Part shown: positions 105 to 64,000 of the stretch, piece after piece | How the letters are laid out: each line of letters starts with the position of its first letter | Numbering within the stretch: the stretch's first letter is position 1 | Source: Squalus acanthias | Lineage: Eukaryota | DNA: 64,000 bases | Direction: 5' to 3' | Assembly (NCBI GenBank): GCA_030390025.1 | Contig: CM059426.1 | Location: 160,518,001 to 160,582,000, forward strand | Position numbers and translations under genes: made by a program | The notes under the pieces: generated by a model | What the model saw: the letters and a program-made list of their open reading frames with translations, nothing else | The model's database searches: none | Told to the model about the DNA's origin: nothing

Positions 105-715
105 ATAGAGTACAAAAGCAAGGAAGTTATGATGAACCTTTATAAAACACTGGTTCGGCCTCAACTGGAGTATTGTGTCCAATTCTGGACATCGCACTTT
201 AGGAAGGATGTGAAGGCCTTAGAGAGGGTGCAAAAAAGATTTACAAGAATAGTTCCAGGGATGAGGGACTTCAGTTACGTGGATAGATTAGAGAAGCTGG
301 GGTTGTTTTCCTTGGAGCAGAGAAGGTTGAGAGTTGATTTGATTGAGGCGTTCAAAATCATGAGGGGTCGAGACAGAATAGAATGAGAGAAACTGTTCCC
401 ATTGGCAGAAGGGTCGAGAAACAGAGGACACAGATTTAAGGTGATTGGCAGAAGAACCAAAGGCAACATGAGGAGAAACTTTTTTACTCAGCGAGTGGTT
501 AGGATCTGGAATGCACTGCCTGAAAGGGTGGTGGAGGCAGACTCAATCACGGCTTTCAAAAGAGAGTTGGATAAGTACCTGAAGGAAAAAATTTGCAGGG
601 CTACGTGGAAAGGGTGGGGGAGTGGGACTAGCAGAAGTGTTCTTGCAGAGAGCCGGCATGGGCTCGACGGGTCGAATGGCCTCCTTCTGTGCTGTAACCA
701 TTCTATGATTCTAGA
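105..715 (+). mobile_element. CR1 LINE 3' fragment (ORF2 C-terminus and 3' UTR)
   Basis: ORFs 33..386 and 402..737 give LYKTLVRPQLEYCVQFW, LERVQKRFTR and FFTQRVVRIWNALP; ends in a CR1-type attctatgattct tail; one in-frame stop. Confidence 0.93.
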
Positions 716-18980: not shown

Positions 18981-19190
18981 CTCTTTTACAGCGGCGGACC
19001 TGGGCGAGAAGTGAGTGGAGCAGCGAGGCTATAAAAGCCTGCGGTATCCAGGTAGGCCCCTCTTTTACAGCGGCGGACCTGGGGGAGAAGTGAGTGGAGC
19101 AGCGAGGCTATAAAAGCCTGCGGTATCCAGGTAGGCCCCTCTTTTACAGCGGCGGACCTGGGCGAGAAGTGAGTGGAGCAGCGAGGCTAA
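18981..19190 (+). promoter_or_regulatory. 79-bp tandem monomers at the CR1 5' end with TATA boxes
   Basis: Units start at 18981, 19060 and 19139; TATAAAA at 19030 and 19109 lies 30 bp before the next unit start (ctctttt). Confidence 0.7.
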
Positions 19191-19361
19191 AAAGCTATAC
19201 AGGGTGATTGCTTTAATAGTGCGGGTCGCAGTGGTTGCTGGGTAAGTTTTTTTTTTACCTGTATATAAGTTGGCGGTTTCTAAACCCGAGACACTACACT
19301 TGTAGTGTCCCCCACCCTTCCACCTCCTCTAACCTAAAGGGGGTGAGTGTATATCAGGAGG

Positions 19362-19709
19362 CCCGGTGAGTATCTAAACTCACTTTCACGGGCTTTTGTT
19401 TGCAGAGGCTGCTGTCAGGAGCGGAGAGAGCCGAGGCCCGGTGAGTATCTAAACTCACTTTCACGGGCTTTTGTTTGCAGAGGCTGCTGTCGGGAGCAGA
19501 GAGAGCCGAGGTCCGGTGAGTATCTAAACTCACTTTCACGGGCTTTTGTTTGCAGAGGCTGCTGTCGGGAGCAGAGAGAGCCGAGGTCCGGTGAGTATCT
19601 AAACTCACTTTCGCGGGCTTTTGTTTACAGAGGCTGGTGTCGGGAGCGGAGAGAGCCGAGGACCGGTGAGTATCTAAACTCACTTTCGCGGGCTTTTGTT
19701 TGCAGAGGT
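19362..19709 (+). repeat. 75-bp tandem array (about 4.6 copies) in the CR1 5' UTR
   Basis: gtgagtatctaaactcac begins at 19366, 19441, 19516, 19591 and 19666. Confidence 0.95.
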
Positions 19710-19994
19710 TTACCAATCTCAGACCGGCGGCAGCGTTCCAGAGCCACGTTACGATTCAAAACATGACGTGGGCAGGAGGGAGCGGCTGATTGGGTGAGTA
19801 CGGCAGGTTAGTATTTATACTACTTTATAGTTTGATAGTTAAGGTTCATAGATTATAAAGTTTCGAAGATCTTAATTTTGTGATTATAATTTCTAGTGCT
19901 AGTAACCAAGGGCCCTTGAGTAATTCATTTAATTGAGTGAAATTGGTGGTATTGATTTGATTTAATTAAAGTTCAATTAATTAAAGGGTAAGTC

Positions 19995-20942
19995 ATGGCA
20001 GGACAGCCCAGCCCCGTGTTGTGCTCCTCCTGCTCTATGTGGGAAATCAGGGACCCTTCCGGTGTCCCTGACGACCATGTGTGCGGGAAGTGTATCCAGC
20101 TGCAGCTACTGACAGCCCGCATTGCAGCGCTGGAGCTGCGGCTGGATGCATATTGGACCATTCGCGATGCTGAGAACCTCGTGGATAGCACGTTTAGTGA
20201 GTTGGTCACACCGCAGGTGAAGGGTGTACAGGCAGGAAGGGAATGGGTGACCACCAGGCAGAGTAGGAGGTGCAGGCAGGTAGTGCAGGGGTCCCCTGTG
20301 GACATCCCCCTCTCAAACAGATATACCGCTTTGGATACTGTTGGGGGGGATGACTTTGGGGAAGGCAGCAGCAGCCAACTTCCTGGCACCATGGGCGGAT
20401 CTGCTGCACAGGCTGGGAGGAAAAAGAGTGGAAGAGCTATAGTGATAGGGGACTCAATTGTAAGGGGAATAGATAGGCGTTTCTGCGGCCGCAACCGAGA
20501 CTCCAGGATGGTGTGTTGCCTCCCTGGTGCAAGGGTCAAGGACGTCTCGGAGCGGCTACAGAACATTTAGGAGGGGGAGGGCGAACAGCCAGCTGTCGTG
20601 ATGCACATAGGCACCAATGATATAGGTAAAAAAGGGGATGAGGTCCTAAAAGCAGAATATAGGGAGTTAGGAGGTAAATTAAAAAATAGGACCTCAAAGG
20701 TAGTAATCCCAGGATTGCTACCAGTGCCACGTGCTAGTCAGAGTAGAAATAGGAGGATATTTCAAATGAATACGTGGCTAGAGGAATGGTGCAAGGGGGA
20801 GGGATTCAAATTCCTGGGACATTGGAACCGGTTCTGGGGGAGGTGGGACCAGTACAAACCGGACGGTCTGCACCTGGGCAGGGCCGGGACCGCTGTCCTA
20901 GGGGGAGTGTTTGCTAGTGCTGTTGGGGAGGATTTAAACTAA
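19995..20942 (+). pseudogene. CR1 ORF1 (zinc finger, coiled coil, SGNH esterase) with one internal stop
   Basis: CSSC..HVCGKC, VIGDSIVRG, HIGTND and DGLHL motifs; ORFs 19995..20570 and 20598..20942 are in the same frame, separated by TAG at 20568-20570. Confidence 0.92.
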
Positions 20943-23881
20943 TGTGGCAGGGGGTTGGGAACCTGAGCAGGGAGACAGAGGAAAGCATGTCAGGAAGGGA
21001 CAGAAGGTATGGAGTAAAAGGTAAAGTGTTAAATAAGGAAAAAGCAGGAAGTAAGTGTCGCAAAGCACATTTGAAAGTTCTTTATCTAAATGCACGTAGC
21101 ATTCGTAACAAAATTGACGAGTTAACGGCACAAATAACTATGTATGGGTATGATCTTGTGGCCATTACAGAAACATGGCTGCAGGGTGACAACGTCTGGG
21201 AATTAAATATGCCAGGGTATTTAACAATCAGGAAGGACAGGCAGGAAGGAAGGGGAGGGGGGGTGGCTATGTTAATAAAGAAAGGAATCACTGTAATACA
21301 GAGAAATGATATTGGGTCAAAAGATCAGGATAATGAAACAGTTTGGGTAGAGATTAGGAATAATAAGGGGAAAAAAACACTGGTGGGCATAGTATATAGG
21401 CCTCCTAATAGTTGCAACTCTGTTGGAAGAAGTATTAATCAGGAAATAGTTGGGGCATGTAATAAGGGAACAGCTATAATTATGGGCGATTTTAACTATC
21501 ATATTAACTGGACAAATCAAATAGGGCAGGGCAGCCTTGAGGAAGAATTTATTGAGTGTCTTAGGGATGGATTTCTTGAGCAGTATGTAACTGATCCTAC
21601 AAGGGGGCAAGCAACCTTGGACCTGGTACTGTGTAATGAGTCTGGATTAATTAATAATGTCCTAGTTAAGGATCCCCTTGGAATGAGTGACCATAACATG
21701 GTTGAATTCCATATCCAATTAGAGGGTGAGAAGGTTGGTTCTCAAACAAGCATACTGAGCTTGAATAAAGGAGACTATGATGGCATGAGAGCAGAATTGA
21801 TTAAAGTGGACTGGGAAAATAGATTAAAGGGTAAGACGGTACATGAGCAGTGGTGTTCATTCAAGGAGTTATTTTACAACTTTCAAAATAAATATATTCC
21901 ACTGAGGAAAAAAGGGTGTAAAAGAAATGACAGCCATCCATGGCTAAGTAAAGAAATTAAAGAAAGTATCCAACTAAAAACAAGGACATATAAGGTAGCC
22001 AAAGTTAGTGGAAGTATAGAAGATTGGGAAGTCTTCAAAAGACAACAAAAAGTAACTAAAGGATTGATTAAGAAAGGGAAAATAGACTATGAAAATAAAT
22101 TAGCAAAAAATATAAAAACAGATAGCAAGAGTTTCTATAGTTATATAAAAAGAAAAAGGGTGGTTAAGGCAAACATAGGTCCCTTAGAGGATGAGACCGG
22201 GAAATTAATGGTGGGAAACATGGAGATGGCAAAAATGCTGAACAAATATTTTGTTTCAGTCTTTACGGTAGAGGACACTAAGAATATCCCAACACTGGAC
22301 AAACAGGGGGCTCTAGTGGGGGAGGAGCTAAATATGATTAAAATTACTAAGGAATTGGTACTCAGTAAAATAATGGGACTCAAGGCGGATAAATCCCCTG
22401 GACCTGATGGCTTACATCCTAGGGTCTTGAGAGAAGTGGCAGTAGGAATTGTGGATGCTTTGGTAATAATTTTCCAAAACTCCCTGAACTCAGCAAAGGT
22501 CCCGGCAGATTGGAAAACTGCTAATGTAACACCCTTATTTAAAAAGGGTAGTAGGCAGAAGGCTGGAAATTATAGACCAGTTAGCCTAACATCTGTGGTG
22601 GGTAAAATTTTGGAGTCTATTATTAAGGAGACAGTAACGGAACATTTAGATAAACATAATTTAATAGGACAAAGTCAGCATGGCTTTATGAAGGGGAAGT
22701 CATGTCTGACAAATTTGCTCGAGTTCTTTGAGGACATAACGTACAGGGTGGATAAAGGGGAACCAGTAGATGTAGTGTATTTAGACTTCCAGAAGGCATT
22801 TGACAAGGTGCCACATAAAAGATTATTACTCAAGATAAAAAATCACTGGATTGGGGGTAATATTCTGGCATGGGTGGAGGATTGGTTATCTAACAGGAAG
22901 CAGAGAGTTGGGATAAATGGTTCATTCTCGGACTGGCAACCAGTAGCCAGTGGTGTTCCGCAGGGGTCGGTGCTGGGTCCCCAACTCTTTACAATCTATA
23001 TTAACGATTTGGAGGAGGGGACCGAGTGTAACATATCAAAGTTTGCAGATGATACAAAGATGGGAGGGAAAGTAGAGAGTGAAGAGGACATAAAAAACCT
23101 ACAAGGAGATATAGACAGGCTGGGTGAGTGGGCAGAGATTTGGCAGATGCAATACAATATTGGAAAATGTGAGGTTATGCACTTTGGCAGGAAAAATCAG
23201 AGAGCAAGTTATTATCTTAATGGCGAGAAACTGGAAAGTACTGCAGTTCAAAGGGATCTGGGGGTCTTGGTGCAAGAAAATCAAAAAGTTAGTATGCAGG
23301 TGCAGCAGGTGATCAAGAAAGCCAATGGAATGTTGGCTTTTATTGCTAGGGGGATAGAATATAAAAACAGGGAGGTATTGCTGCAGTTGTATAGGGTATT
23401 GGTGAGACCGCACCTGGAGTACTGCATACAGTTTTGGTGTCCATACTTAAGAAAAGACATACTTGCTCTCGAGGCAGTACAAAGAAGGTTCACTCGGTTA
23501 ATTCCGGGGATGAGGGGGTGGACATACGAGGAGAGGTTGAGTAGATTGGGACTCTACTCATTGGGGTTCAGAAGAATGAGAGGCGATCTTATTGAAACAT
23601 ATAAGATTGTGAAGGGGCTTGATCGGGTGGACGCGGTGAGGATGTTCCCAATGATGGGTGAAACTAGAACTAGGGGACATAATCTTAGAATAAGGGGCTC
23701 CTCTTTCAAAACTGAGATGAGGAGAAACGTTTTCACTCAGAGGGTAGTGGGTCTGTGGAATTTGCTACCCCAGGAAGCTGTGGAAGCTACTTCATTAAAT
23801 AAATTTAAAACAGAAATAGACCATTTCCTAGAAGTAAAGGGTATCAGGGGTTACGGGGAGCGGGCTGGAAATTGGACATGA
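20942..23881 (+). CDS. CR1 ORF2: apurinic-like endonuclease plus reverse transcriptase, 979 aa
   Basis: LYLNARSIRNK, ITETW, YRPP, MGDFN, SDH, NYRPVSLTS, LDFQKAFDKV, GVPQGSVLGP and FADD motifs in one uninterrupted frame. Confidence 0.98.
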   Translation: MWQGVGNLSRETEESMSGRDRRYGVKGKVLNKEKAGSKCRKAHLKVLYLNARSIRNKIDELTAQITMYGYDLVAITETWLQGDNVWELNMPGYLTIRKDRQEGRGGGVAMLIKKGITVIQRNDIGSKDQDNETVWVEIRNNKGKKTLVGIVYRPPNSCNSVGRSINQEIVGACNKGTAIIMGDFNYHINWTNQIGQGSLEEEFIECLRDGFLEQYVTDPTRGQATLDLVLCNESGLINNVLVKDPLGMSDHNMVEFHIQLEGEKVGSQTSILSLNKGDYDGMRAELIKVDWENRLKGKTVHEQWCSFKELFYNFQNKYIPLRKKGCKRNDSHPWLSKEIKESIQLKTRTYKVAKVSGSIEDWEVFKRQQKVTKGLIKKGKIDYENKLAKNIKTDSKSFYSYIKRKRVVKANIGPLEDETGKLMVGNMEMAKMLNKYFVSVFTVEDTKNIPTLDKQGALVGEELNMIKITKELVLSKIMGLKADKSPGPDGLHPRVLREVAVGIVDALVIIFQNSLNSAKVPADWKTANVTPLFKKGSRQKAGNYRPVSLTSVVGKILESIIKETVTEHLDKHNLIGQSQHGFMKGKSCLTNLLEFFEDITYRVDKGEPVDVVYLDFQKAFDKVPHKRLLLKIKNHWIGGNILAWVEDWLSNRKQRVGINGSFSDWQPVASGVPQGSVLGPQLFTIYINDLEEGTECNISKFADDTKMGGKVESEEDIKNLQGDIDRLGEWAEIWQMQYNIGKCEVMHFGRKNQRASYYLNGEKLESTAVQRDLGVLVQENQKVSMQVQQVIKKANGMLAFIARGIEYKNREVLLQLYRVLVRPHLEYCIQFWCPYLRKDILALEAVQRRFTRLIPGMRGWTYEERLSRLGLYSLGFRRMRGDLIETYKIVKGLDRVDAVRMFPMMGETRTRGHNLRIRGSSFKTEMRRNVFTQRVVGLWNLLPQEAVEATSLNKFKTEIDHFLEVKGIRGYGERAGNWT

Positions 23882-26997: not shown

Positions 26998-27472
26998 GTT
27001 TGGAATCTTTCTTTTTTGGTGGCTTTTATTTCAGCATTTTGGCTTAGAGGACGCAGTGATGGTCCAGAACAGAGGGGTGGTAAGGTGTGTGACTGTTGTA
27101 CAATGGGGATTTAGGGTTGTGTTCAGTGGAACCGTAGTCGAATGAGGCGATCATGGACAGCCCGGCCGGAGACGGGTGTGCTGGTTGCCTCCTCCCTTCC
27201 TCCTCTTCCTCCTCCTCTTCCTCCCTGTGAGCAGCTTGTCCTCTTCTTTGCTGCCTCTGCTCCATCTCCCCATCATGCTGCAGGACAAGGGGGATGGCAA
27301 CTACCGCACCCATGACTGGAAGCAAGTGGTTTGACCAGAACTCTTGAAGTCAGAACCGAGGCCTTCTCCACTTGCAGCACCACTCCCTGTCACCTCTTCA
27401 ACTTTAAACAACTCTGGAAAGCACCAAAGACTTCTGCAAACTTACACAGAGCCAGTAGAAATTAATCAGCAA

Positions 27473-30425
27473 CTACAACAACAACAACAACAACGCATAT
27501 TTATATAGCGCCTTTAATATAATAAAACATCCCGAGGCACTTCACAGGATTGTTCTCAAGGAAACAAAAAACAAAATTTGACACCGAGCCATATAAGGAG
27601 ATGTTAGGGCAGGTGACCAAAAGCTTGGTCGAAGAGGTAGATTTTAAGGAGCGTCTTAAAAGGAGGAAATAGAAGTGGAGAGGCGGAGAGATTTAGGGAG
27701 GGAATTCCAGAGCTTAGGACCTAGGCCGGCAATGGTGGAGCATTTAAAATCGGGGATGTTCAAAAGGCTGGAATAGGCAGAGCGCAAAACTATGGGGCTG
27801 GAGGAGATTACAGAGATAGGGAGGGGCGAGGCCATGGAGGGATTTGAAAACAAGGATGAGAATTTTAAAATCGGTGCATTGCTTAACTGGGAGCCAATGT
27901 AGGTTAGCAAGCACTGGGGTGATGGGTGAGGGAGACATGGGGGGCGATTTTGCCAGCCCTGGGGAGGCGGGTGTGGAGGCGGGAGTGCCAGGAAAATGGC
28001 AGAATTTGGGGGCGGGTGCCCAACCCGCCCCCAACCAGCCTCCATGCCATCTTGCCAGAGGCAGGTAGCCATCCCGCGCCGGGTCCCATCTCCTTGGAGG
28101 CGGGAAGGGATTAAAGCCTATTAACTGCCTGTTAACAGGTAGTTAACAGGCAGAAAATAGGATTATCCCCTTTTTGCCCTCACAAGTACGGGCTTCCCGA
28201 AGGCTCAAAAACCCGCCAGCTCAGCGAGGTGAGTAGTGGGTTTGCGGGGGTTGGGGGGGGGGGTGGGGTGGGTGCTAAAGTATGCTGTGAAGGTAAGTGA
28301 TGGGTGCAAGAGTGGAGAGGTGAGTATCTGAGGTAAGTGCAAAGTGTTAGTAAAAGTGTACTTACCTTTGTTTCTCCCTGCAGGCTTCAATCGGTCTGTA
28401 TGCGGAGAGTCTCGGACCTCCGTGTTGCAGATGGCAAATGGCCGTTGCATTCTCAGATGCAACAACCATCTCATTTCTGTAAAAGAAAGAAGTTTGGTGA
28501 GGTCTTGAATTCAAGACCTCATCAAACTACAGAGAATGTCAGTGTTTGACAGCTTCACAGAGCTGTCAAATGATGACAATTCATCTGTCAACAATTTTTG
28601 ACAGATGAAATATCATACGTTGACGTTCTCTGCAACTGACTTTCCCTTAATTGGCCTGCTAAGCCCGCTGGGTGGGCTTAACAAGGTCAATCAAGGGAAA
28701 ATAGCGTGGGTTGGCCACAAATTGATGGAGGCGGGACATCGACCCGCCAAGCAGCAGTCCCGCCTCCAATGCGCCCCCATTAACAAAATCGGCACCCAGG
28801 TGTGAGTTAAGACACGGGCAGCCGAGTTTTGGATGACCTTAAGTTTATGGAGGGCAGAACTAGGGAGGCCAGACAGGAGTGCATTGGAATAGTAAAGTCT
28901 AGAGATGATTAAGGCATGGTTGAGGGTTTCAACAGCAGGTAAGTTGAGGCAAGGGTGGAGACGGGTGATATTCCGAAGGTGGAAATGGGCGGTCTTAGTG
29001 ATAGAACGGATATGAGGCAGGTAGCTCAATTCTTGATCAAATATGACACCAAGGTTGCAAACTGACTTGGTCAGCCTTAGACAGTTGCTGGGAAGAGAGA
29101 TCGAATCAGTGGAAAGGGAATGGAGCTTGTGGCGTGAACCGGAGACATGGTTTCGGCCTTCCCGATATTTAATTGCAGGAAATTACTTCTTATCCATTGC
29201 TAGATGTCGGACTAGCAGTCTGATAGTTTAGAGATGGTGGCGGGTTTGAGAGAGGTGGAGGAGAGGTAGAGCTGGGTATCATCAGCGTACATGTGAAAAC
29301 TCACATTGTGTTGCCGGAAGATGTCACCGAGGGGCAGCATGTAGATGAGAAAAAGGAGGGGGGTCAAAGATAGATCCTTGGGGGACACCAGAGGTAACGA
29401 TGCGGGAATGGGAAGAGAAGCCGTTGCAGGTGATTTTATGGGTATGGTTGGAAACAGAGGCGTGAAACCAGACGAGTGCAGTCCCATCCGGCTGGACGAC
29501 GGTGGAGAGGCATCGGATCTGAATTTTGTGGTCATCATGTCAAAGGCTGCAGACAGGTCCAGAAGGACGAGCAGGGATAGATTACCTTTGTCGCAGTCAA
29601 TTAGGATGTCATTTGTGACCTTGGTAAGAGCAGTTTCAGTACTGTGGCAGGGGCGGAAGCCTGATTGGAGGGATTCAAACAAGGCATTCTGGGAAAGATG
29701 GGCACAGATTTTAAAGCAACAACATGTTCATGAACTTTGGAGAAGCAAGGGAGGTTGGAGATGGGGGCGATAGTTTGCAAGGATGGAGGGGTTAAAGGTT
29801 GTTTTTTTGAGGAGAGGGGTGATGACTGCAGATTTGAAGGAGAGGGGGACAATACCAGAGGAGAGAGAGAACCGTTAACAATATCCGCTAACATGGGAGC
29901 CAGGAAGGAAAATTGGGTTGTCAGCGATTTAGTAGGAATAGGGTGGAGAGCGCAGGAGGTCGGTCTCATTGACAAGATGAGCTTTGAAAGGGCAAGAGGG
30001 TAGATAGGAGAGAAATTAGATAAATATGCAAATTTAGGGTTAGGGCAGGGGGAAAACAGAGAGGAAGTCAGATCTGGTGGGTTAGGGGGAGGAAAGAAAT
30101 TGAAAGCAGAAGCAGTTGAATGGATGCAGTCGATCTTTTTAACAAAGAAGTCCATGAGCTCCTCACATTTATTGTTGGAGGTAAGGGAGAAGGAGACAGG
30201 GGAGGGTGAAGAGAAGAGGTTTGAGAAGATGGTTAGTTGTGGAGAAGAGAAGCCTGGTGTTATTTTTGCAGTCCTGGATGATCTTAGAATAGTGGGCAGT
30301 TTTAGTGATGGAGAACAGGACCTGGTAGTGCTTTATATGATCTAGCCAAATCTGGTGATGGATGATTAGACCAGTTGTCCGCCAAAGACGTTTAAGTCTG
30401 CGTCCCTTGGACTTAAGGAAGCGCA
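27473..30425 (-). mobile_element. L2 LINE, 5'-truncated, interrupted by a MITE at 27939-28797
   Basis: QSGFRPCHSTETALTKVTNDIL, LLDLSAAFD, FHMYADDTQLY, KLKVIQNSAARVL and KLWNSLP; (GTT)n tail. Confidence 0.93.
27939..28797. mobile_element. Harbinger-type MITE
   Basis: TIR-like gggggcgattttg / caaaatcggcaccc; L2 is continuous across it; right end matches 1-104. Confidence 0.8.
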
Positions 30426-30579
30426 TCAATCAAAAATATAGTTTTTAATTCAAAACACAGATCATACCAAGAGTTAGATTTTTAATATTTACAAAATTTT
30501 GTTCTGCCATTCTTAAATGTAAAAGTAGATTGTTTCTTCACTCTTTTTAGGTGTCCCTCTGCGCACCACATTTCCTCAC

Positions 30580-30982
30580 AACAACTACAACAGCAACAAC
30601 ATGTATTTATATAGCGCCTTTAAAGTCGTAAAATGTCCCAAGGCATTATAAAACAAAATTTGACACCGAGCCACATGAAGAGATATTAGGGCAGATGACC
30701 AAAAGCTTGGTCAAAGAGGTAAGTTTTAAGGAGCGTCTTAAAGGAGGAAAGTAAGGTAAAGAGACGGAGAGATTTAGGGAGGGAATTTCAGAGCTTAGGG
30801 CCTAGGCAGCTGAAGGCATGGCCGCCAAAGGTGAAATGATGAAAATCAGGGATGCGCAAGAGGCCAAAATTGGAGGAGCACAGAGAGCTCGGAGGGTTGT
30901 AGAGCTGAAGGAGGTTACAGAGATGGGGAGGGGCGAGACCATAGGGGAATTTGTAAACAAGGAGGAGAATTTTAAAATTAGA
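30580..30982 (-). mobile_element. L2 LINE 3' fragment
   Basis: Colinear with 27473-27870; ORF FKILLLVYK..GLAPPHL..GPKL. Confidence 0.88.
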
Positions 30983-31274: not shown

Positions 31275-31582
31275 AAAATAATTCTTGGTTTATGGGCATC
31301 GCTGGCAAGGTCAGCATTTATTGACCATCCCCACTTGCTCTGGAAAAGGTGGTGGTGAGCCGCCTTCTTGCTGCAGTTTGTGTGGTGAAAGTGCTCCCAC
31401 AGTGAAGTTAAGTCGGGAATTCCAGAATGTTGACCCGGTGACAATGAAGGGACAGGGATACATGTCCAACTCAGGATGGTGTGTGACTTGGAGGGTTACA
31501 TGGAGGTGATGGTGTTCTTGCTGCTCTCGACCTTCTAGGTGTTGTAGGTCACGAGATTGGGAGGTGCTGCTGAGGAAGCCGA
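31275..31582 (-). mobile_element. 3' fragment of the LINE family at 51586-54788
   Basis: Colinear with 51590-51905. Confidence 0.8.
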
Positions 31583-32458: not shown

Positions 32459-32789
32459 CAGCATGCCATGGTTTCTAAAAAACAAAAAGCACTAATTATC
32501 CAATTAATGGTATTGACTGAGGTTTAAGGAACAAATCCAAGCTTGTTTCCAATTAGTAACTTCACCTGGGTTCCATTTACTCCACTCAAACTCTCTCCAA
32601 GTTTTTTCCCCAGTTGCCTGGGTGCAATTTGTTATTCAAATACGCCTTATGTTGTTGGTACAGGGTTTCTTTATTCTTATTCATATAGTCCTCATCTTCC
32701 CCCTCTTGTATCTGTTTTTTCTGGGTGTCTTTATGCTGTTATAGTACATACTGGGTATAGAATTTCCTAATGATCAACTGCAGTTTATT

Positions 32790-33038
32790 CAAAAAGAAAA
32801 TACTGCAGATGCTGGAAATCTGAAATAAAAACAGAAAATGCTGGAAATACTCAGCAGGTCAGGCAGCATCTGTGAAGATAGAAACAGAGTTAACGTTTCA
32901 GGTCGATGACCTTTCGTCAGAACTGGACGAACTGGACTCCAGTTCTGACGAAAGGTCATCGACCTGAAACGTTAACTCTGTTTCTCTCTTCACAGATGCT
33001 GCCTGACCTGCTAAGTATTTCCAGCATTTTCTGTTTTT
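32790..33038. mobile_element. Palindromic Penelope pLTR derivative with two outward-facing hammerhead motifs
   Basis: Arms 32827-32927 and 32938-33038 are inverted with 2 mismatches; 14-bp duplication aactgcagtttatt. Confidence 0.9.
32941..32977 (+). ncRNA. Minimal hammerhead ribozyme motif (mirror copy on - at 32888-32924)
   Basis: AGTT-CTGACGA-AAGGTC-ATC-GACCT-GAAA-CG-TT-AACT. Confidence 0.82.
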
Positions 33039-33279
33039 AACTGCAGTTTATTTCTTGCCAAACCTCCGGTAATGATGTTACCAGCAGTAACCCTCTTGTG
33101 TGAAGATCGCTGGATGTTAAGAGCACAAAGCACCCTGACAGTCACTATCTACACTGACAGCTACCGCTGACAGAAAAAGCTTTCTAACTAAAAACAGAAT
33201 AAAAGATATATTAACAATAACCGTACCATGGACTAATGTCAATACTGTAATTGAATCTCTAGGGACACTTGCCAAATGT

Positions 33280-37818: not shown

Positions 37819-38097
37819 GATGTATCTGGGCTGGCACTTGCCACTGTAGGGGTAACTGAAACTGGCTGCTATAATATGTTCTATTGAGATGGGTCCTTGG
37901 GCTTTGCCATCTCTTCCTGTCAGGTGTTTAGAGGAGCAGAAGAATGTATTTTAGAATGCTGGCTATAAGACACTGCTTGAAACATAGCGTATATGGCAAG
38001 ACATTCTGTTGTTTAATGCCGGAGCACTGCAATTTATGCCTGTGTAATAAGAGAACAGAGACAAGTTTACATTTTGGGTAGGGACTCTCTATAAGAA

Positions 38098-38214
38098 CCG
38101 AAACATCAACTTGTCTGTTATCTCCACAGATGCTGCCTGACCTGATGAATGTTTCCAGCATTTTCTTTTTCTGTTGTTTCAGAATTCCAGCATCTGCAGT
38201 ACTTTGCTTTTGTA
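38098..38214 (+). mobile_element. Penelope pLTR 3' fragment
   Basis: Reverse-complement homolog of 57972-58087; only the 3' half of the hammerhead (cgaaacatcaact) remains. Confidence 0.78.
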
Positions 38215-49896: not shown

Positions 49897-51585
49897 CCTG
49901 ATGTGATTCAGAAAACCTCCAAAGTGTAGAAACTAAGCTCTCAGCAAAATTACTGTGAACAAACCCTTTCCACTAGTAGGTAAGAAAGCAGCTGTGAGTA
50001 TTGAGTATTTATTGAAGTATTTGCATGCGTTTTAATCAGCCCCTTCAATTGTTCTCGCCTTCCTTTCAATGGCGAGTTTCTGGAAGCCCGGGAAACCTGT
50101 AGATGTGACGTTAAAGTTAAAAATGTGTTGAAATATTGCTCCAATTGAGTGTTTAGGGTATGTTAATAATCAAACTGCCTCTTCCGAGGGGGATATGCAC
50201 AACCAGCCTAACGCGCCCGAGTTAAAAACGGACGATAGCGGGCTGGAGCCGGCTTCCTGACACACTCGCATTTTTGCTGGCTTAAACCCCGCACCTAAAG
50301 TCATGCACTCCTCCAGGTTAAAATTCCCCCCAATTAGTCTAATGTACACAGCAAAAGGGACCATCACAGAAATTAAAGGCACAATACCAAAACAAAAATT
50401 GGTATTAGAATTCATGAAACATCTATAATGGACTAAAGGCACAGCATTCCATAGGAACCAGATGTGCAGGAATTGAAAAATTACCTCCAAAAGGTAGGGA
50501 AAATACCCAAAATAGCCATGGTTTGATTTCAAGTGCCATTCCCAATAAAAGTGGCAAGGAGAATGTCTGTTATAAATAGCATAAGTTATATTCAGTATCA
50601 CATTAATTTACACAATAGGGTTGTAGACCAGAGTGGATCTGTTGATATCAGTGGATAAGAGTGCTTCCTGTTTTGTTGGCAGTTTCTCTCTTCTATTTGG
50701 TGAGGCTGGTAAATCAAGACACCCCATGATGCTTTTCAACTAGCCTGAGGATATGTTAGTCCATCAATGAGATACTGCTGCTTCCCCAGTATGGGACTGA
50801 TGTGCCAAAAGACACAAATTAGAATTATAATTGCACACATATAGCATACAAAGTTATTGTGGGCTCATGTGGCAACACAGTAAGGCTGTTCTTGTTGAGT
50901 TGGTCAGGATTTATACCAGTCTATTGTATTGTCTTGATACTGTGGCAATCAATACCCTTATTGAAGGCATACTTCAGCAAAGGCTCACAAAATTCATATT
51001 TGTGATTCTTTCCCAAGCATCTGACAGGACATTCATTAATTTTTTTTTATCATAAAACGAATTTGTGAATGATATTTTATGCATCCATTCTGCAATCATG
51101 TTACCTAATAGATAATGAAGACAGAATTTCAATCAGCAACATATTATTTCTTAATTAAAAAGAAGTAATCACATAGAATCATAAAATAGTACAGCACAGA
51201 AGGAGGCCATTCAGCCCATCAAGACAGTACCGGCTCTTTCGAAGGGCAATCCAGTTAGTCCCACTCCCCCGCTCTTTCCCCATATCCCTGCAATTTTACG
51301 TCTTTAAAGTATTTATCCAATTCCGTTTTGAAGGCTACTATTGAATCTGTATCCACCACCCTTTCAGGCAGTGCATTCCAAATCCTAACCACTCGTTGCG
51401 TAAAAAAGTTTTCCCTCATTTTGCCTCTGGTTCTTTTGCCAATCACCTTAAATCTGTGCCCTCTGGCTATCGACCCTTCATCCATTGGAAACAGTTTCTC
51501 TTTACTTACTCTATCTAAACCCTTCATGATTTCAAACACCTCTATCAGATCTCCTCTTATCCTTCACTGCTCTAAGGAGAACATT

Positions 51586-54500
51586 TTTTTTTATTCGTTC
51601 ATGGGATGTGGGCGTCGCTGGCAAGACCAGCATTTATTGCCCATGCCTAGTTGCCCTTGAGAAGGTGGTGGTGAGCCGCCTTCTTCAGCTGCTGCAGTCC
51701 GTGTGGTGAAGGCACTCCCACAGTACTGTTAGGGAGGGAGTTCCAGGATTTTGACCCAGCGACGATGAAAGAATGGCGATATACTTCCAAGTCAGGATGG
51801 TGTGTGACTTGGAGGGGAACTTGGAGGTGGTGATGTTCCCATGCACCTGCTGCCCTTGTCCTTCTAGGTGTTAGATGTCACGAGTTTGGGAGGTGCTGCC
51901 GAAGAAGGCTTGGTGAATTGCTGCAGTGCATCTTGTAGATGGTACACACTGCAGCCACGGTATGCCGGTGGTTGAGGGAGTGAATGTTTAAGGTGGTAGA
52001 TGGGGTGCCAATCAAGCGGGCTGCTTTGTCTTGGGTGGTGTCGAGCTTCTTGAGTGTCGTTGGAACTGCACTCATCCAGGCAAGTGGAGAGTATTCCATC
52101 ACATATACCTGACTTGTGCCTTGTAGATGGTGGAAAGGCTTTGGGGAGTCAGGAGGTGAGACACTCGCTGCAGAATACCCAGCCTCTGACCTGCTCTTGT
52201 TGCCACAGTATTTATGTGACTGGTCCAGTTAAGTTTCTGGTCAAAGGTGACCCCCAGGATATTGATGGTGGGGGATTCAGCGATGGTAATGCCCTTGAAT
52301 GTCAAGGGGTGGTGGTTAGACGCTCACTTGTTGGAGATAGTCACTGCCTGGCACTTGTGTGGCGCGAATGTTACCTGCCACTTATCAGCCCAAGCCTGAA
52401 TGTCGTCCAGGTCTTGCTGCATGCGGGCATAGACTGCTTCATTATCTGAGGAGTTGCGAATGGAACTGAACACTGTGCAGTCATCAGCGAACATCCCCAC
52501 TTCTGACCTTATGATGTAGGGAAGGTCATTGATGAAGCAGCTGAAGATGGTTGGGCCTAGGACACTGCCCTGAAGAACTCCTGCAGCGATGATTGACCTC
52601 CAACCACCACAACCATTTTCATTTCTGCTAGGTATGACTCCAGCCAGTGGAGAGTTTTCCCCCCGATACCGATTGACTTCAGTTTTACTAGGGCTCCTTG
52701 ATGCCACACTCGGTCAAATGCTGCCTTGATGTCAAGGGCAGTCACTCTCACCTCACCTCAGGAATTCAGCTCCTTTATTCATGTTTGGACCAAGGCTGTA
52801 ATGAAATCTGGAGCCGAGTGGTCCTGGCAGAACCCAAACTGGGCATCAGCCTAGTGCTGATAAGTAAGTGCTGCTTGACAGCACTGTCGATGACACCTTC
52901 CATCACTTTGCTGATGATTGAGAGTAGACTGATGGGGCGGTAATTGGCCAGATTGGGTTTGCCCTGCTTTTTGTGGACAGGACATACCTGGGCAGTTTTC
53001 CACATTGTCGGATAGATGCCAGTGTTGTAGCTGTACTGGAACAGCTTGGCTAGAGGTGCGGCTAGTTGTGGAGCACAAGTCTTCAGCACGACAGCCAGGA
53101 TGTTGTTGGGGCCCATAGCCTTTGCTGTATCCAGTGCGCTCAGCTGTTTCTTGATATCACGTGGAGTGAATCGAATTGGCTGAAGACTGGCTTCTGTGGT
53201 GTTGGGGACCTCAGGAGTAGGCCGATATGGATCACCCACTCGGCACTTCTGGCTGAAGATGGTTCCAAACACTTCAGTTTTGCCTTTTGCACTCACGTGC
53301 TGGGCTCCCCCATCATTGAGGATGGGGATATTCATAGAAGGACAAGCAGAGCTTTGATCTGATCCGTTGATTGTGGGATTGCTTAGCCCTGTCTATAGCA
53401 TGCTGCTTCCGCTTTTTAGCATGCATGTAGTCCTGTGTTGCAGCTTCCCCTGGTTGGCACCGTATTTTTAGGTACGCCTAGTGCTGCTCCTGGCATGCTC
53501 TTCTACACTCCTTATTGAACCAGGGTTAGTCCCCTGGCTTGATGTTAATGGTAGAGTGAGGGATATGCCGGGCCATGAGGTTACAGATTGTGGTGGAATA
53601 CAATTCTGCTGCTGCTGATGGACCACAGCACCTCATGGATGCCCAGTTTTGAGCTGCTAGATCTGTTCTGAGTCTATCCCATTTAGCACGGTGGTAGTGC
53701 CACACAACACGATGGAGGGTGTCCTCAGCGTGAAGACGGGATTTCGTCTTCACAATGACTATGCAGTGGTCACTGCTACCAATGCTGTCATGGACAGATG
53801 CATCTGTAACAGGTAGATTGGTGAGGACGAGGTCAAGTAGGTTTTTCCCTCATGTTGGTTCTCTCACCAGCTGTCGCAGGCCCAGACTGACAGCTCTATC
53901 CTTCAGGAATCGGCCAGCTCGGTCAGTAGTGGTGCTACCCCAAGCCACTCTTGGTGATGGACATTGAAGTCCCCCACCCAGAGTACGTTCTGTGCCCTTG
54001 CTACTCTCAGTGCTTCTTCCAAGTGGTGTTCAACATGGAGGAGTACTGATTCATCAGCTGAGGGAGGGCGGTAGGTGGTAATCAGCAGGAGGTTTCCTTG
54101 CCCATGCTTGACCTGAAGCCATGAGACTTCATGGGGTCCGGAGTCAATGTTGAGGACTCCCAGGACCACTCCTTCCCGACTGTATACCACTGTGCTGCCA
54201 CCCCTGGTTGGTCTGTCCTGTCGTTGGGACAGGACATACCCAAGGATGGTGATGGAGGAGTTTGGGACATTGGCTGAAAGGTATGATTCTGTGAGTATGA
54301 CTATGTCAAGCTGTTGCTTGACTAGTCTGTGGAACAGCTCTCCCAATTTTGGCACAAGTCCCCAGCTATTGGTGAGGAGGACTTTGCAGGGTCGACCGGT
54401 CTGGGAGTGCTGTTGTTGTGCCCGTACCCGGTGTCGAGTGGTCCGTCTGGTTTTATTCTTATTGTTTTTCGTAGCAGTTTTTTTACAACTGAGTGACTTG

Positions 54501-54788
54501 CTAGGCCATTTCAGAGTCAACCACAAGGCTGTGGGTCTGGAGTCACATATAGAACAGGTAAGGATGGCAGATTTCCTTCTCTAAAGGGCATTAGTGAACC
54601 AGATAGGTTTTTAAGACAATCTGGTAGTTTGATGGTCACCATTACTGATACTAGCTTTTTATTCCAGATTTATTTATTTAACTGAATTTAAATTCCCGAG
54701 CTGCCGCAGTGGGATTTGAACTCACTTCTCTGGATCATTAGTCCAGGCCTCTAGGATTACTAGTCCAGTAACATATCCAGTATGCTAC
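51586..54788 (-). mobile_element. Nested CR1/L2-group LINE of a second family, with a tRNA-SINE-like head, decayed ORF2 and poly(A) tail
   Basis: Endonuclease motifs DIVILTESYL, TYRPP, VGDFNVHH; RT motifs NYRPISLLS, LDIKAAFDRVWH, QGSVLGP, FADD; ends gaataaaaaaaa. Confidence 0.92.
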
Positions 54789-54790
54789 CA
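54711..54790 (-). promoter_or_regulatory. tRNA-like RNA polymerase III internal promoter (A and B boxes)
   Basis: Minus strand: TGGTAGCATACTGG (A-box-like, 54790-54777) and GAGTTCAAATCCC (B-box, 54723-54711). Confidence 0.72.
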
Positions 54791-56065
54791 TTCCCCAGCT
54801 TCTCCAGTTTATCCAACTGTAATCCCTCATCCCTGGAACCATTCGAGTAAATCTCTTCTGTAGCCTCTCCAACGCCTTCACGTCCTTCCTAAAGTGTGGT
54901 GCCCAGAGTTGGACACAATACTCCAGCTGGGGCCGAACTAGTGTTTTATAAAGGTTTAACATAGCTTCCTGGCTTTTGTACTCGATTTATAAAGCCCAGG
55001 ATCCCATATGCTTTATTAAATGGTTTGTTAACCTGTCCTGCCACCTTCAAAGATTTGTGCACAATCACCCCCAGGTCTCTCTGTTCTTGCATTTCCTTTA
55101 AAATTGTGCCATTTAACTTGTATTATCTCTCTTCATTCTTCCTACCAAAATATATCACCTTACACTTTTTTGCGTTGAATTTCATCTGCCATGTATCTGC
55201 CATTCCAGCAGCCTGTCTATGTCCTCTTGAAGTCTATTACTATCTTCCTCACTGTTTACTACAATTCCAAGTTTCATGTCATCTGCAAATTTCGAAATTG
55301 TGTCCTGTCATTAATGTATATCACAAACAGCAGTGGCCCTAGTACTGAACCCTGGGGAACACCACTGTGTACCTCTATCCAGTCCAAAAAACAGCCATTC
55401 ATCACAACTCTCTGTTTTCTATCCATTAGCCAATTTTGTATCCATGCTGCTACTGCCCCTTTTACCCCAAGAGCTTCAATTTTGCTAACAAGCCTAATAT
55501 GTGGTACTTTATCAAATGCCTTTTGAAAGTCCGTATACACATCAACTGCACTGCCTTCATCAACCCTCTCTATTACTTCATCTAAAAACTCAATCAAGTT
55601 AGTTAAACATGATTTGCCCTTCACAAATCCATGCTGGCTCTGCTTTATTAGTCCATGCTTGTCCAAGTGGCTGTTAATTTTCTCTCGGATTGTTGTTTCT
55701 AAAAGCTTCCCCACCACCGACATTAAACTGACTGGGCTGTAATTGCCAGGTTTATTCTTCTCCCCTTTTTTGAACAGGGGTGTAACATTTGCAATCCTCC
55801 AGTCCTCTGGCACCACCCCTGTATCTAAGGAGGATTGGAAGATTGTGGCCAGCACCTCCGCAGAAATAACATAGGAATGCTGAACTGAGTGCTGATCCAA
55901 AATAAAACCTTATATAAGTAGACCATTCTTTCAGCAGACACTTCTTTTACATTATACAATATGTAGCCTTTTGCCCTACCTGCCAGTGTTGCTTTGCAGT
56001 TTTTGTCTAAGACGTAAGTAGATTAGATAAATAACATTTACATAATCATAATATCACTACTGTAT

Positions 56066-56574
56066 TAACAACAACAACAACAACATTTATATAGCGCCTT
56101 TAACGTAGTAAAACATCCCAAGACGCTTCACAGGAGTATTAAAAGACCAAAAAAATTTGACACCGAGCCACATAAGGAGAAATTAGGGCAGTGACCAAAA
56201 GCTTGGTCAAAGAGGTAGGTTTTAAGGAGCGTCTTAAAGGAGGAGAGAGAGGTAGAGAGTCAGAGAGGTTTAGGCAGGGAATTCCAGAGCTTAGTGCCAA
56301 GGCAACAGAAGGCACGGCCGCCAATGGTTGAGCGATTATAATCAGGGATGCTCAAGAGGGCAAAATTAGAGGAGCGCAGATATCTCAGGGGGTTGTGGGG
56401 CTGGAGGAGATTACAGAGATAGGGAGGGGCAAGGTCATGGAGGGATTTGAAAACAACGCTGAGAATTTTGAAATCGAGGCGTTGCTTAACCAGAAGCCAA
56501 TGTAGGTCAGCGAGCACAGGGGTGATGGGTGAACGGGACTTGGTGAGAGTTAGCACCAAGTCCCGTTCACCCAT
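56066..56574 (-). mobile_element. L2 LINE 3' fragment with a fold-back at its 5' junction
   Basis: PITPVLADLHWL..RLDFKIL..LAPPYL..KLWNSLP; (GTT)n tail. Confidence 0.92.
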
Positions 56575-57735
56575 TAAATAGCATGAAATACTCACTCCTG
56601 TGAGCAATCAAAAGACTTCCACATTTCCTTTTATATTGTGAATGTTTTAAAAAGTTTAAAGTCCATTCTATATCACTTTGAATACAAGGGGATAATGGTC
56701 AATCATTTGTTCATAAAAAGCTGCTAACAACAAAAAACAAAATTGTAATTCAAAACATTAGAGCAAAGCTGCTGATTTTTATTGAGCAAGAAGGATAACT
56801 GCTGGACAACATGGTCACAGATGGACACCAGTTATGAATTCTTGCATTAATCATGATACAGATATGCTTCAGCACTCCCTCTGTTGAAGATACATGGAAG
56901 TATATTAGGATTACATAACAGACTGTTAAATTCTGATGTATAAAGTTTCTGCGAATGACCTAACACTACCAGGGATTTTGCTTAGTAGCTACAACAATCT
57001 GCCATGGGGCAATGTAGCTATGAAATTGAGGAAACTATGAAGAACAACTTTAAATGTGATATTAGGGGTTCAGATTCAGGCAGACAAATGTATATGTGTC
57101 TCTCAGTAGTATTTTGGTAATGGAAAGAGCAAGGGTATAATTTCTGAGTATCAGATGCAAAGGTATTTAGATAGTGATCAAGTACATATGCCACTGAGCA
57201 ACTGCACACCATTTTCACCTCTTCAAAGTGTTGACTTGCTGCCAGCAGAAGATTAAGCTCCCCAGTCACAGAGACCAGTAATAATCACAGTTAGGCATTA
57301 TAACAAGATATGAGGCCCTTGAGCTGTATAACCATATGACGTACTCAATGTAGAGCTGATTGGAGAGTGGGCACCTGACCAAAACCCCCAGAAAACACTG
57401 GTTAGCTGAGCAGGAAGTGCACCTGGAAGTAGTTGAGACCATATAAGCACTAGAGTGAATTCCACCAACCCCACACCAAAAGGTTGTCCTCAGAGAAAGT
57501 CACTTGGCAGTTCCATGTCTTGTTTTCAAAAATAAAATAACCTGGCCCAGTTCAACAACGTAAATAAGATCACCAAGGAAAAATGCTGTTCAACTAGCAA
57601 ACCTGACAAGCAACTGGCAGGGAAAGCAAACCAACAAGGAATCTAACAGCAGCTCAACAGCAGCTGCTGCCGTGCAGTGTATGTCCATTTGTCAGTGAGT
57701 GAATGAGCGATTGAGTGGGAGGGGAGAAGAATATT

Positions 57736-58483
57736 GGTCCATAATTTGTAGTCAGCAGCGAAGCAAAGCCATTCGCTGCTGGCCCTGAAGAAAGCTGCCC
57801 TTAAAGATCTTGCGATCTCTGTGGCGAGAAGTTTGGCTTTCTCGACGTTCAATTGAGATCGGTGCAGTACAGTGGGGAATTCCTAGTGCGCTCTGCTGTG
57901 ACGTCAACAAGCTGTCTAATCAGCCAATCACAATGCAGAATTCTCACAGACAGTGAACCAGGAAGTGAACAATAATACAAAAGCAAAATACTGCGGATGC
58001 AGGAAATCTGAAATAAAAACAGAAAATGCTGGAAATACTCAGCAGGTCAGGCAGCATCTGTGGAGAGAGAAACAGAGTTAACGTTTCAGGTCGATATTCC
58101 TTTACTTGTCCCATTACCATCTCCTTTTGTCTCACACCATTATCCCTTTTGTCTTTTAATCTCTTTTAATTTAGCAGTCAATATGCTGTTAAAACCCCAG
58201 TTACACGTAATCCAATAAGGTATAACTTTTAATGGGGTATTTAACAACGGAAAAGCCCAAGTTTTCGTCAGGTTCAATGATTTCCCTGATTACGCTGATT
58301 GCCGGCTATGGCGGGGGGAGGGGGTGCGGCCACAACACAGCCAGTGTCGGAGCAGTGAATGACTTTAGGATTTCTGTGTTAGAATGCGTATGCGCTACGT
58401 CCTGACATTGCAGGCAGTTTCAAAGGGGTAATGACAGCAAACGCTGCTCGTTCGTTGTAATTATCCACCGTAAATTCCAGGCC
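57736..58483. mobile_element. Harbinger-type MITE, family A, with a Penelope insertion
   Basis: Colinear with 3361-4136 except that the AT-rich centre is replaced by 57972-58170. Confidence 0.82.
57972..58170. mobile_element. Penelope pLTR fragment with a 5' inversion
   Basis: 57972-58095 matches 2135-2244; 58104-58170 is the reverse complement of sequence near 2375-2458. Confidence 0.8.
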
Positions 58484-59252: not shown

Positions 59253-59704
59253 AATGAGTCAAAAAGCTTCCTCTGGTCCATTGTTTCAGCCTGCTGTACG
59301 AGGCCTTTTCCTGTAAGCAGAAACAAAATGTAAATCTGTAAAAGCAGAAAAAATGTCACCCACATACTCAAAGTGCTGCCACCTTGTGTGAATCCATGAA
59401 TGTGTGACATGCAAGTATCTTGTGTTAGCCATATGCTCAGTGCTTCCTACCTGCATGATCCATGTGCAATGTTAGAAGTATGTTTGTGCCCCAGCAACAA
59501 AGTCTGCCCTGCAGCAAAATGATCATGTACATGAATGTGTGAAAGAGCTGAAAGATTGTATGAGTGCTTCATATGTTGCCTGAATGAAGCTGCACCAGGT
59601 TGATAGAAAACTCTTTGTAACATGCATCATGTGCCAAACCCACTCATGTGGGCAAATTCTAGGCACTCTTACCTTATCAATCTTCCAGAGTCCTGAAAAT
59701 GTTT

Positions 59705-59811
59705 AATAAAAAATAAAAACAGAAAATGCTGGAAATACTCAGCAGGTCAGGCAACATCTGTGGAGAGAGAAACAGAGTTAACGTTTCAGGTCGATGACCC
59801 TTCGTCAGAAC
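59705..59811 (-). mobile_element. Solo Penelope pLTR piece with an intact hammerhead motif (59776-59812)
   Basis: 14-bp duplication tcctgaaaatgttt (59691-59704, 59812-59825); CTGACGA..GAAACGTT on the minus strand. Confidence 0.87.
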
Positions 59812-60971
59812 TCCTGAAAATGTTTGTAGCATATTCTCTCACAACCTATGGGGCTGGGCGACTATATTCGCTCCTTGACCTCCTCCACAAAGACATTTCG
59901 AAGTGTGGTGCTGAAGAGAGCAGCCCTCCTTTGCTGTGTTTCCTAGAGCAACACCCCAGTGTCTTCAAATGGAGCAGTCTTGCTCCCATACCTTCAGCCT
60001 TTTCTTCTGCGGCCTTGCTGGAAATCCTGCCGACACAGTCTGCTCACTGGACTTGGGCCAATGTGTGCAAGGAGTATACAGTATATAAATTATTATAATG
60101 CACTGTCAAAATACACATGATATGTGGCCTGTGATTTGGTCCCAGTAATACTGCACTGGAACTGGATAATCGGCCCTATAATTTCTGCTTGTCCAGTAGC
60201 TAAAGAGGTGTTTGTGTTGTACAAGAACCAATTAATGTTGCTAATTTCTTTATAGTTGGAAAAAATAGCATTGACACTGCACTTTTATCTGCTGACATCA
60301 GATGATTTGACATTTAGTAACTTATTACTCATTCATCAGTTCCTGACGTTTATAGAATAGGCTCCCCCCTTCCGTTTTTACAATGAGCTCAATAAATATC
60401 TCCAAACATTAATAATCATGTGTTAGTGCTATTGTCTGCAACTCTCCTTTAGACTTTACATTATAAAATTAATGTTTTTGGGAGTATGATCACATTTGTG
60501 CTGTGTAAAGGGATTTTAACATTAGCACTGACATTGTTTTGGCCTCAGACAGTAACAATACAGCATATTACCCCAACAGTGCATTACTCAGTTTATTTTA
60601 TGTTTGTGAAAGGCTCATTACTTTATGAAAGATCCATAATTCACCATCGTCATAAATGTAAGTAAGTGATGAGGTCTTCCTCATGAATAAAATAAACTGA
60701 CTATGGCATACTATTTGTTTAATATTATAATTATTATGTTTTTAATTCTTTAACTCGCTCATTTTCTTTTGCTTTTTTTGACCTTATATCACAAATGGTT
60801 GTGGTTCCCATAGTGATTTTTACTGCTGTATCCTTGCTTTTGTGACATCATTACCTATCAAGATGTTTATATTTATAAAGTGAATTAGTTATGGTGCCTT
60901 AAACATTCAGAAAGTCGCACTTAGAGTGTACTGCATAGTAGGGCAGTGACTATTTCCCCACGTGTCTATTA

Positions 60972-62893: not shown

Positions 62894-64000
62894 GGGGTTA
62901 AATTTGATAACGCATAAAAACGGGCGCGGGCACCATAATGCGTGATATGCCCGCACCCATTGAAAGGAGCTCAGGCAGCATGTTGAATTCATGCTGCCTG
63001 TTAATTATAATGATTGTAGCACACAGCCCAGTGCTGAACGTGCTGCTGACAGACCATGTGCTCAGCAGGCGGCCCAAGTTCCCAATGTTCGCGCAAGGCT
63101 AGCTTTACTTAAAGCTAGCCTGCGCCTCTTAAAGGCAGTCTGCACCTCTTAAAGGTGATAGCAAAATACTGCAGATGCTGGAAATCCGAAATAACAACAG
63201 AAAACGCTGGAAAAACTCAGCAGGCCAGGCAGCATCCGTGGAGAGAGAAAGAGAGTTGACGTTTCAGGTCTGATGAAAGGTCATCGACCTGAAACGTCAA
63301 CTCTCTTTCTCTCTCCACGGATGCTGCCTGGCCTGCTGAGTTTTTCCAGCGTTTTCTGTTGTTACCTCTTAAAGGTGAGCTGCCTTCAGGTGATGAAAAA
63401 TTTTAAAAGTGCTTCTGCACTAACCCACTTGGCTCAACAGGCCAGCGAAAGGGCACCCAAGGTCTTGGACGCAGCACTCGAGGCCTTTGTGCAGGGGGTG
63501 AAAACTGGTAGAGAGGATCTCTACCACAAGGGGCCAGAAGGCCCTCTAGAAAGAAGGATAAGGGACCAGATTACCGAGGCGGTCACTGTCAGCAGTGTCA
63601 CCCCCAGGACCTGGCTCCAGTACCCAAAGAAGTTTCATGACCTCAGACGAGTGGTCAAAGTCAGTGAATGCATCTTCAAAAGCCGTCTCCTACCAACTGC
63701 ACCACTAGCCTCACACACTGCTCAATGCACAACCCCCCCATCACTCACCTACCAACAAGGTTTACCAAACACGAGGTACACCTCCCATTCCTACCTTCAC
63801 CTCACCCCCTTGGAGGAGACGGTCCAGCCATTCTTGGCAGGGACATGGCTGAGCCCTTGACCAGTGATGGGGCTGAAAGGATACAAGATGCTGGTGTCCT
63901 CATACATTATCCTCCTTCTCACATCCCACTTTCCCCTGATCTCACAATATCTTCTGATTTACAAGCTGCACATGGTGTAAGCATGCACCCCTTGCTTTCC
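62894..64000 (+). mobile_element. PIF/Harbinger element, left part, with decayed Myb/SANT exon (about 63430-63659)
   Basis: Colinear with 24782-26030; ERAPKVLDAALEAFVQGV..PRTWLQYPKKFHDLRRVVK. Confidence 0.85.
63159..63363. mobile_element. Palindromic Penelope pLTR derivative with a hammerhead core
   Basis: Inverted arms of about 78 bp; CTGATGA-AAGGTC-ATC-GACCT-GAAA-CG-TC at 63270-63298; 15-bp duplication acctcttaaaggtga. Confidence 0.9.

Follow-up and report, generated by a model that had tools for sequence, protein, structure and literature searches.

LINEs are commonly taken to be transcription units of RNA polymerase II (Pol II), and SINEs to be units of RNA polymerase III (Pol III) that share only a tail with the LINE that moves them. 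RTE-1_DAn and the elements related to it, known to us through a one-sentence description in PMC5786205, are LINEs with tRNA-like sequence that matches the heads of SINE2 elements, and in this they resemble the dogfish element reported here, although they belong to the RTE clade and ours to the CR1 group. The bipartite tRNA-SINEs of RTE and Vingi (CoeSINE4, WALLSI2 and SINE2_Gav, as portrayed in the accessible part of PMC5786205) join a tRNA head to the 5' part and the 3' tail of a LINE, as does the short form of our element described below; in them, however, the head is borne by the non-autonomous form only, whereas in sharks the long coding element is headed too. The HCD SINEs of bivalves, which are mobilised by Zenon, are tRNA SINEs with tails that match CR1-Zenon, but according to the text at hand (PMC11481361) only 35-61 bp of tail are common to SINE and LINE, unlike in the shark pair. 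Persaeus, a SIDE of the lepidopteran Zenon (PMC6740152), keeps both the 5' and the 3' ends of its LINE, as the shark short form does; the portion of that paper available describes it as free of tRNA homology and of a Pol III promoter, whereas the shark form has both boxes and is in that sense no SIDE. The two described elasmobranch SINEs, SacSINE1 and HE1 (PMC5499810, PMC10468316), are likewise tRNA-derived shark elements, and are set apart from the short form by their descriptions, as far as these are accessible, in that SacSINE1 combines a Deu body with an L2 tail and HE1 bears a V domain. The nearest system is the elasmobranch Zenon itself. In the accessible text of Stuart et al. (2026, PMC13343379), Zenon is reported from five elasmobranchs, hagfish and coelacanth, without an ORF1 and with a poly(A) tail that is unique to it among CR1-group elements, and the elasmobranch members, about 3.2-3.3 kb long, have a single APE-RT ORF and the same 5' 400 nt as the element at this locus.

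The locus lies in a window of 64,000 nucleotides of Squalus acanthias DNA (the whole stretch analysed), where a preliminary description had read a LINE with a tRNA-SINE head fused to ORF2. On the minus strand the order is host CR1, tRNA-like head, body, endonuclease-RT frame, short 3' UTR, nine A residues and host CR1 again (Table 1). The head with its A and B boxes, the SINE-like body behind it, and an endonuclease frame entered near 54390 that runs through the RT to the poly(A) were all recovered as described, with ARAGORN calling a tRNA in the first and with Pfam and tblastn tracing the last. By Pfam, the endonuclease (PF03372) sits in a frame that is open from 54580 onward, and is followed by RVT_1 in two pieces. 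When five full-length relatives serve as tblastn queries, their matches cover a single ORF2 between about 54420 and 51660, with five changes of frame, and the trimmed ORF2 pieces hold 7 stops. The roughly 400 nt on the 5' side of the endonuclease consist of head, body and linker only, so that there is no room for an ORF1; its absence had been correctly noted, but it is no novelty, being the normal state of Zenon elements (PMC13343379). Basic N-terminal stretches like the one that follows the linker are found in the protein relatives P0021 and P0024. The clusters P0021 and P0032 hold intact relatives of 962-983 aa on contigs of 3.6-4.0 kb, which are probably compact single-ORF elements. Loose contig ends, numbering in the thousands, put the 3' end of the element at 51584-51586, where 1,855, 2,612, 2,197 and 65 contigs of four runs enter unrelated flanks, and the 5' end (54794) was placed by eye against SquAca_Zenon-1/2/3. 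In this decayed copy, neither the head nor the body nor the tail folds better than shuffled sequence (z 1.15, 0.05 and -0.76, respectively).

Table 1. Features of the Zenon element and its surroundings; positions are those of the window.
Feature	Position	Strand	Basis
Zenon LINE, whole element (decayed full-length copy, 3,211 bp)	54794-51584	-	sequence; tblastn
tRNA-derived head, with two tandem anticodon-like hairpins (about 54768-54751 and 54746-54730)	54700..54794	-	ARAGORN; Rfam tRNA; sequence; SquAca consensuses
Putative Pol III A box	54777..54787	-	pattern search; A-box-like word opens 7/7 elasmobranch consensuses (by eye)
Putative Pol III B box	54713..54721	-	pattern search; B-box words in 6/7 elasmobranch Zenon consensuses
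Conserved body (5' UTR), ~215 nt, common to LINE and short form	54485..54699	-	body words only in elasmobranch Zenon rows; joint at 54484/54485
A-rich linker of variable length, then basic stretch in endonuclease frame	54392..54484	-	sequence; consensus lengths by eye
Single ORF2, with five frame changes and several stops	51647..54391	-	ORFs; Pfam; tblastn
AP endonuclease, within ORF2	about 54391-53935	-	PF03372
RT, within ORF2	about 52850-52340	-	RVT_1
Short 3' UTR and poly(A) (51592-51584)	51584..51646	-	sequence; contig ends
Tail retained in short form, joined to body at 54484/54485	51584..51687	-	contig joints
Second Zenon copy, 5'-truncated 3' fragment	31282..31578	-	78% over 310 columns (self-comparison)
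Host CR1 ORF2, part upstream of insertion	54795..55900	-	self-comparison; Pfam; tblastn
Host CR1, part downstream of insertion	51174..51583	-	80% to window 304-713; junction alignment

As had been proposed, the older host CR1 runs on across the insert, judged against the uninterrupted copy at 105-713. The junction is an overlap of G-runs with about 1 host base missing. The 4-bp CATT duplication suggested for it fails, since its 5' copy (54792-54789) lies inside the element's own head according to the SquAca consensuses and cannot be a target-site duplication. None of the CR1 copies of the window matches the insert at the DNA level, and on this evidence its tail is not common to canonical shark CR1, in contrast to the HE1/HER1 pair. 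Elsewhere in the window (20918-23881, plus strand), a stop-free canonical CR1 ORF2 of 987 codons marks an apparently young CR1 copy, and the 192-codon piece that precedes it (19992-20570) looks by motif like what we take to be an esterase-type ORF1.

We assign the A and B boxes of the head on the usual patterns of such boxes; 55 nt separate them, and neither strand of the 64-kb window has another pair of this kind. ARAGORN's tRNA spans 54773-54700, and the Rfam tRNA model matches 54789-54701 with 19 bits, under its cut-off of 29, and with an extra stretch of 31 nt that reads as a second anticodon-like hairpin; the doubled form is present in the SquAca consensuses also. Both boxes are retained across the consensuses while the hairpin between them varies (by eye). 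The dogfish consensuses have a second hairpin (window 54768-54730) with a stem unlike that in the consensuses of white shark, whale shark and catshark, and the stingray consensus lacks this hairpin (by eye). A match to Rfam sR23 was dismissed as chance (E 2.3). As to the tentative likeness of the body to MER131 and Meta-domain SINEs in the preliminary description, among the MetaSINEs, which carry the Meta domain immediately behind the tRNA region, BivaMeta-SINE1 rows in the part of the PMC4824008 supplement available have two short words in the same order at another spacing (by eye), and only one of four window words occurs in that supplement (file 2), in a V-SINE. MER131 is noted to end in poly(A) in the accessible text of PMC5753468.

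The element holds what characterizes Zenon, in that its ORF2 encodes an AP endonuclease and an RT, an ORF1 is lacking and poly(A) stands at 51592-51584, and on its 5' match, rather than on its RT, we assign it to the elasmobranch Zenon family. Table S2 of PMC13343379, in the portion seen, gives 10 Zenon consensuses, comprising 7 from elasmobranchs (2,886-3,314 nt; SquAca_Zenon-1/2/3, CarCar, RhiTyp, ScyCan and HypSab), 2 from hagfish and 1 from coelacanth, and we compared the 5' 400 nt of each row. Head and body open all 7 of the elasmobranch consensuses, as against none of the 3 from hagfish and coelacanth, and those 7, which represent four shark orders and one ray order, begin 0-3 nt from the first base of the tRNA. 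Set against SquAca_Zenon-1 over ~310 nt, the window copy shows 3 gaps and about 25 substitutions, an identity of ~92% (by eye, 5' end only) and so, over that end, above 80% to a published elasmobranch Zenon consensus. Four window words match those 7 rows alone, and six B-box words match 6 of 1,003 consensus 5' ends, every one an elasmobranch Zenon; in the HypSab consensus the B box is degenerate. The head-ORF2 junction is thus not peculiar to this locus, and the earlier proposal that head and ORF2 form a single, recurrent unit is upheld in 7/7 published elasmobranch consensuses. Table S3 of the same paper lists intact ORF2 in 0/2313, 1/1419, 3/612, 0/396, 1/294 and 0/59 copies (six of seven families); we read these denominators as near-full-length copies, not all of which may carry the head. 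With 0-3 intact ORF2 among tens to thousands of copies per family, present-day activity is doubtful.

Among the runs listed, 14 of 24, from five organisms, hold 0.54-0.63 of the element's words, and four runs were compared with the element at 80% likeness; all of these are contigs, which show no start, strand, cap or copy number. All 30 bins of the element are covered, with depth declining toward the 5' end, the pattern that truncated LINE copies should give. Three observations count against a Pol III-headed LINE: the 32 contig pieces listed include none that spans body and endonuclease, there is a dip in depth at 54355-54469, and the 24 rows listed (16,479 further rows exist) hold no 5' loose end. 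The unspanned junction and the dip are also what would be expected if the head-ORF2 junction were a one-off chimera, or an artefact of consensus building from an abundant SINE beside truncated LINEs. This explanation is largely refuted and we give it very little credence, as the same junction is found in 7 per-species consensuses, in the window copy and in separate gene models; in addition, depth in the three DNA-like runs is not much greater over the head than over the endonuclease, although this is a poor measure. The close protein matches are decayed pieces within shark gene models (of those identified, four are whale shark and one is horn shark). The endonuclease piece is matched by 27 of 163 proteins, 3 of which (P0004, P0009 and P0013, the last named as whale shark) also match the body by tblastn, as P0015 and P0028 do by eye, and gene models that hold body and endonuclease support the junction independently of the contigs. 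An apparent body match in P0001 was discounted, since it arose where the alignment extended out of a host domain that is unrelated. The NCBI model "CWC25 homolog" of Heterodontus francisci (P0002) starts with sequence derived from Zenon ORF2, through either exonisation or an artefact of the gene model.

Short forms with the same head and tail had been predicted, and a head-to-tail joint is present in 4/4 runs. It connects 54484/54485 to 51682-51687 in at least 9, 10, 9 and 2 contigs (4 of the 15 joints listed, with 7,240 further), and in one run there is also a joint to 51656. The short form is therefore head, body and the last ~100 nt, about 420 nt in all, with about 2,800 nt skipped; its joint sides are only 24-32 letters, so that it is known from joints and not from whole copies, and the at least 30 contigs that share the joint over the four runs are no measure of amplification or of copy number. 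It has the makings of a tRNA-derived SINE, being short and non-coding, with an A/B-box head and a tail common to its partner LINE. Judging from the joints, it may be either a deletion product of the LINE, as Persaeus is of butterfly Zenon, or an older SINE that donated the head.

The head likely serves as an internal Pol III promoter from which the whole 3.2-kb single-ORF Zenon LINE is transcribed, a reading to which we assign a probability of about 0.55. Pol III would start at the first base of the head and would read through 3.2 kb since no terminator intervenes; ORF2 protein would then be made from a non-standard start and bind the 3' tail, and the RNA would be inserted by target-primed reverse transcription, while the short form of ~420 nt would behave as a SINE that relies on this promoter and this tail. 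That LINEs insert by target-primed reverse transcription, with ORF2 bound to the 3' tail, is established.

A scan of the window copy's sense strand for terminators of four or more T, which the preliminary description had called for on the consensus, returned none (0 T4 runs and ten T3 in 3,202 nt). Base shuffling predicts 4.99 T4 runs (P 0.004) and dinucleotide shuffling 2.02 (P 0.11); with the protein fixed, 6.37 are expected from uniform codons (P 0.0007), 4.73 from codons weighted by third base (P 0.007) and 2.60 from permutation of the element's own codons (P 0.052). The depletion is thus weak under the strictest nulls, which counts against Pol III transcription. Over the element, 3,692 nt pass without a T4 run, double the length of the second-longest such stretch in the window. 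As controls we used CR1 copies of the window: the stop-free CR1 ORF2 has 8 T4 runs, in line with all its nulls, and five other CR1 pieces have 1-5 each. The second tail (31275-31578), which is more decayed, has 2, and this counts against Pol III transcription. Most contigs have fewer T on the sense strand than the window copy (in X1, 65 places lose T and 27 gain it). The PMC13343379 supplement holds 2,750 T4 and 1,110 T5 in the whole file, roughly at least 1.6 runs per 400-nt cell, and there is no T4 in the 7 elasmobranch Zenon cells of 400 nt (by eye), weak evidence as those 7 are related. The element has a general preference for C over T at third bases, with all six two-fold C/T amino acids favoring C, and the absence of T4 fits selection against terminators and also a C-rich codon bias, maybe a trait of the lineage.

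A Pol II origin of the full-length RNA has also to be considered, with the head fixed in the family, transcription driven from the head/body region or by host promoters, the boxes kept for the short form or for RNA structure, and the lack of T4 a by-product of C-rich codons. The insignificant dinucleotide and borderline own-codon results and the uniform preference for C agree with such an origin, as does the general view of LINEs as Pol II units (stated in the accessible text of PMC5786205), and a capped RNA would ease translation. We nonetheless think it unlikely, though a serious contender, as the consensus 5' ends coincide with the first base of the tRNA in five species and both boxes are retained in the long element; moreover, the upstream AUGs, being out of frame, would hinder ordinary scanning of a capped RNA too.

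In the window copy there are 7 such AUGs upstream of the endonuclease and none is in its frame. Six consensuses have an A-rich linker of 30, 30, 30, 26, 29 and 22 nt, and the window copy one of 28 (by eye), and because the linker length varies, frames upstream of it are not conserved. In HypSab, the only row in which both the closest shared AUG and the endonuclease start are readable without evident gaps, the two are out of frame by one base. ORF2 may begin at a non-AUG codon or depend on a frameshift, or else the consensuses may contain an error at this place. RNA made by Pol III usually has no cap, and together with upstream AUGs that are all out of frame this counts against transcription by Pol III. 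Yeast pre-tRNAs have been reported as capped, in the accessible text of PMC13451320. A division of roles would avoid translation of an uncapped RNA, in that Pol III would make the 3.2-kb template while other copies, through capped read-through transcripts made by Pol II, would supply the protein in trans; this would still account for the retained boxes and the absence of T4 from the strand, and 39% of whale-shark CR1-Zenon copies are given as lying in introns in the part of the preprint available (bioRxiv 10.1101/443036). We consider this quite improbable, since supply in trans would leave only weak selection on ORF2 in Pol III copies, yet head and ORF2 have been kept together across sharks and rays.

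To return to Pol III transcription of the headed LINE, the Zenon elements of hagfish and coelacanth lack the head, as by report do those of butterflies, so that a single gain in the elasmobranch line is probable, through an RT template switch before the split of sharks and rays. The full scenario, of an autonomous LINE transcribed by Pol III that captured a tRNA promoter, purged its T-runs before the shark-ray split, is translated in a non-standard manner and gave rise to its own SINE by internal deletion, is more tentative than its promoter component and in our estimation falls a little short of even odds. Were it true, it would provide a natural protein-coding Pol III transcript, with a tRNA promoter kept across sharks and rays and a terminator-free coding strand of 3 kb, and would raise the question of how such a Pol III RNA is translated. 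The family also offers a direct case for the question of SINE-body origin (posed in the accessible part of PMC5786205), as the long form has head, body and tail in common with the short one, and annotators of repeats in elasmobranch genomes may record this single family as two, a SINE and a LINE.

What is new here is the tRNA head as a feature of the family, visible in published sequences yet unremarked, the family and its lack of ORF1 being already known. The accessible text of PMC13343379 and of its preprint makes no mention of a tRNA, promoter or polymerase and does not describe the short form; in their accessible portions, the whale-shark preprint (10.1101/443036) names CR1-Zenon only and the dogfish genome paper mentions neither Zenon nor tRNA. 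We found no publication on a tRNA-headed Zenon and no paper text with any of five sequence words from the window, although Repbase, Dfam, SINEBase, the Zenodo file or supplements may already note the head. Metagenome scans gave 254 pattern matches, none of them confirmed, and viral contigs yielded nothing; 8 exact 18-mer metagenome matches were rejected as chance, having no further likeness to the insert.

The window holds other repeats besides. Tandem arrays at 4767-5902, 18981-19195 and 19358-19708 have periods of about 56, 79 and 75 bp, respectively (self-BLAST offsets). A repeat of ~100 bp occurs in both orientations and up to 99% alike at 2132-2274, 8396-8513, 32787-33052, 38091-38214, 57970-58095, 59700-59819 and 63160-63367, with some close inverted pairs, and may represent the ends of a non-autonomous DNA transposon. 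Another is present in three copies, 73-81% alike (27472-27940, 30578-30978 and 56067-56607), and presumably encodes an L2-type C terminus, judging from the look of its frame.
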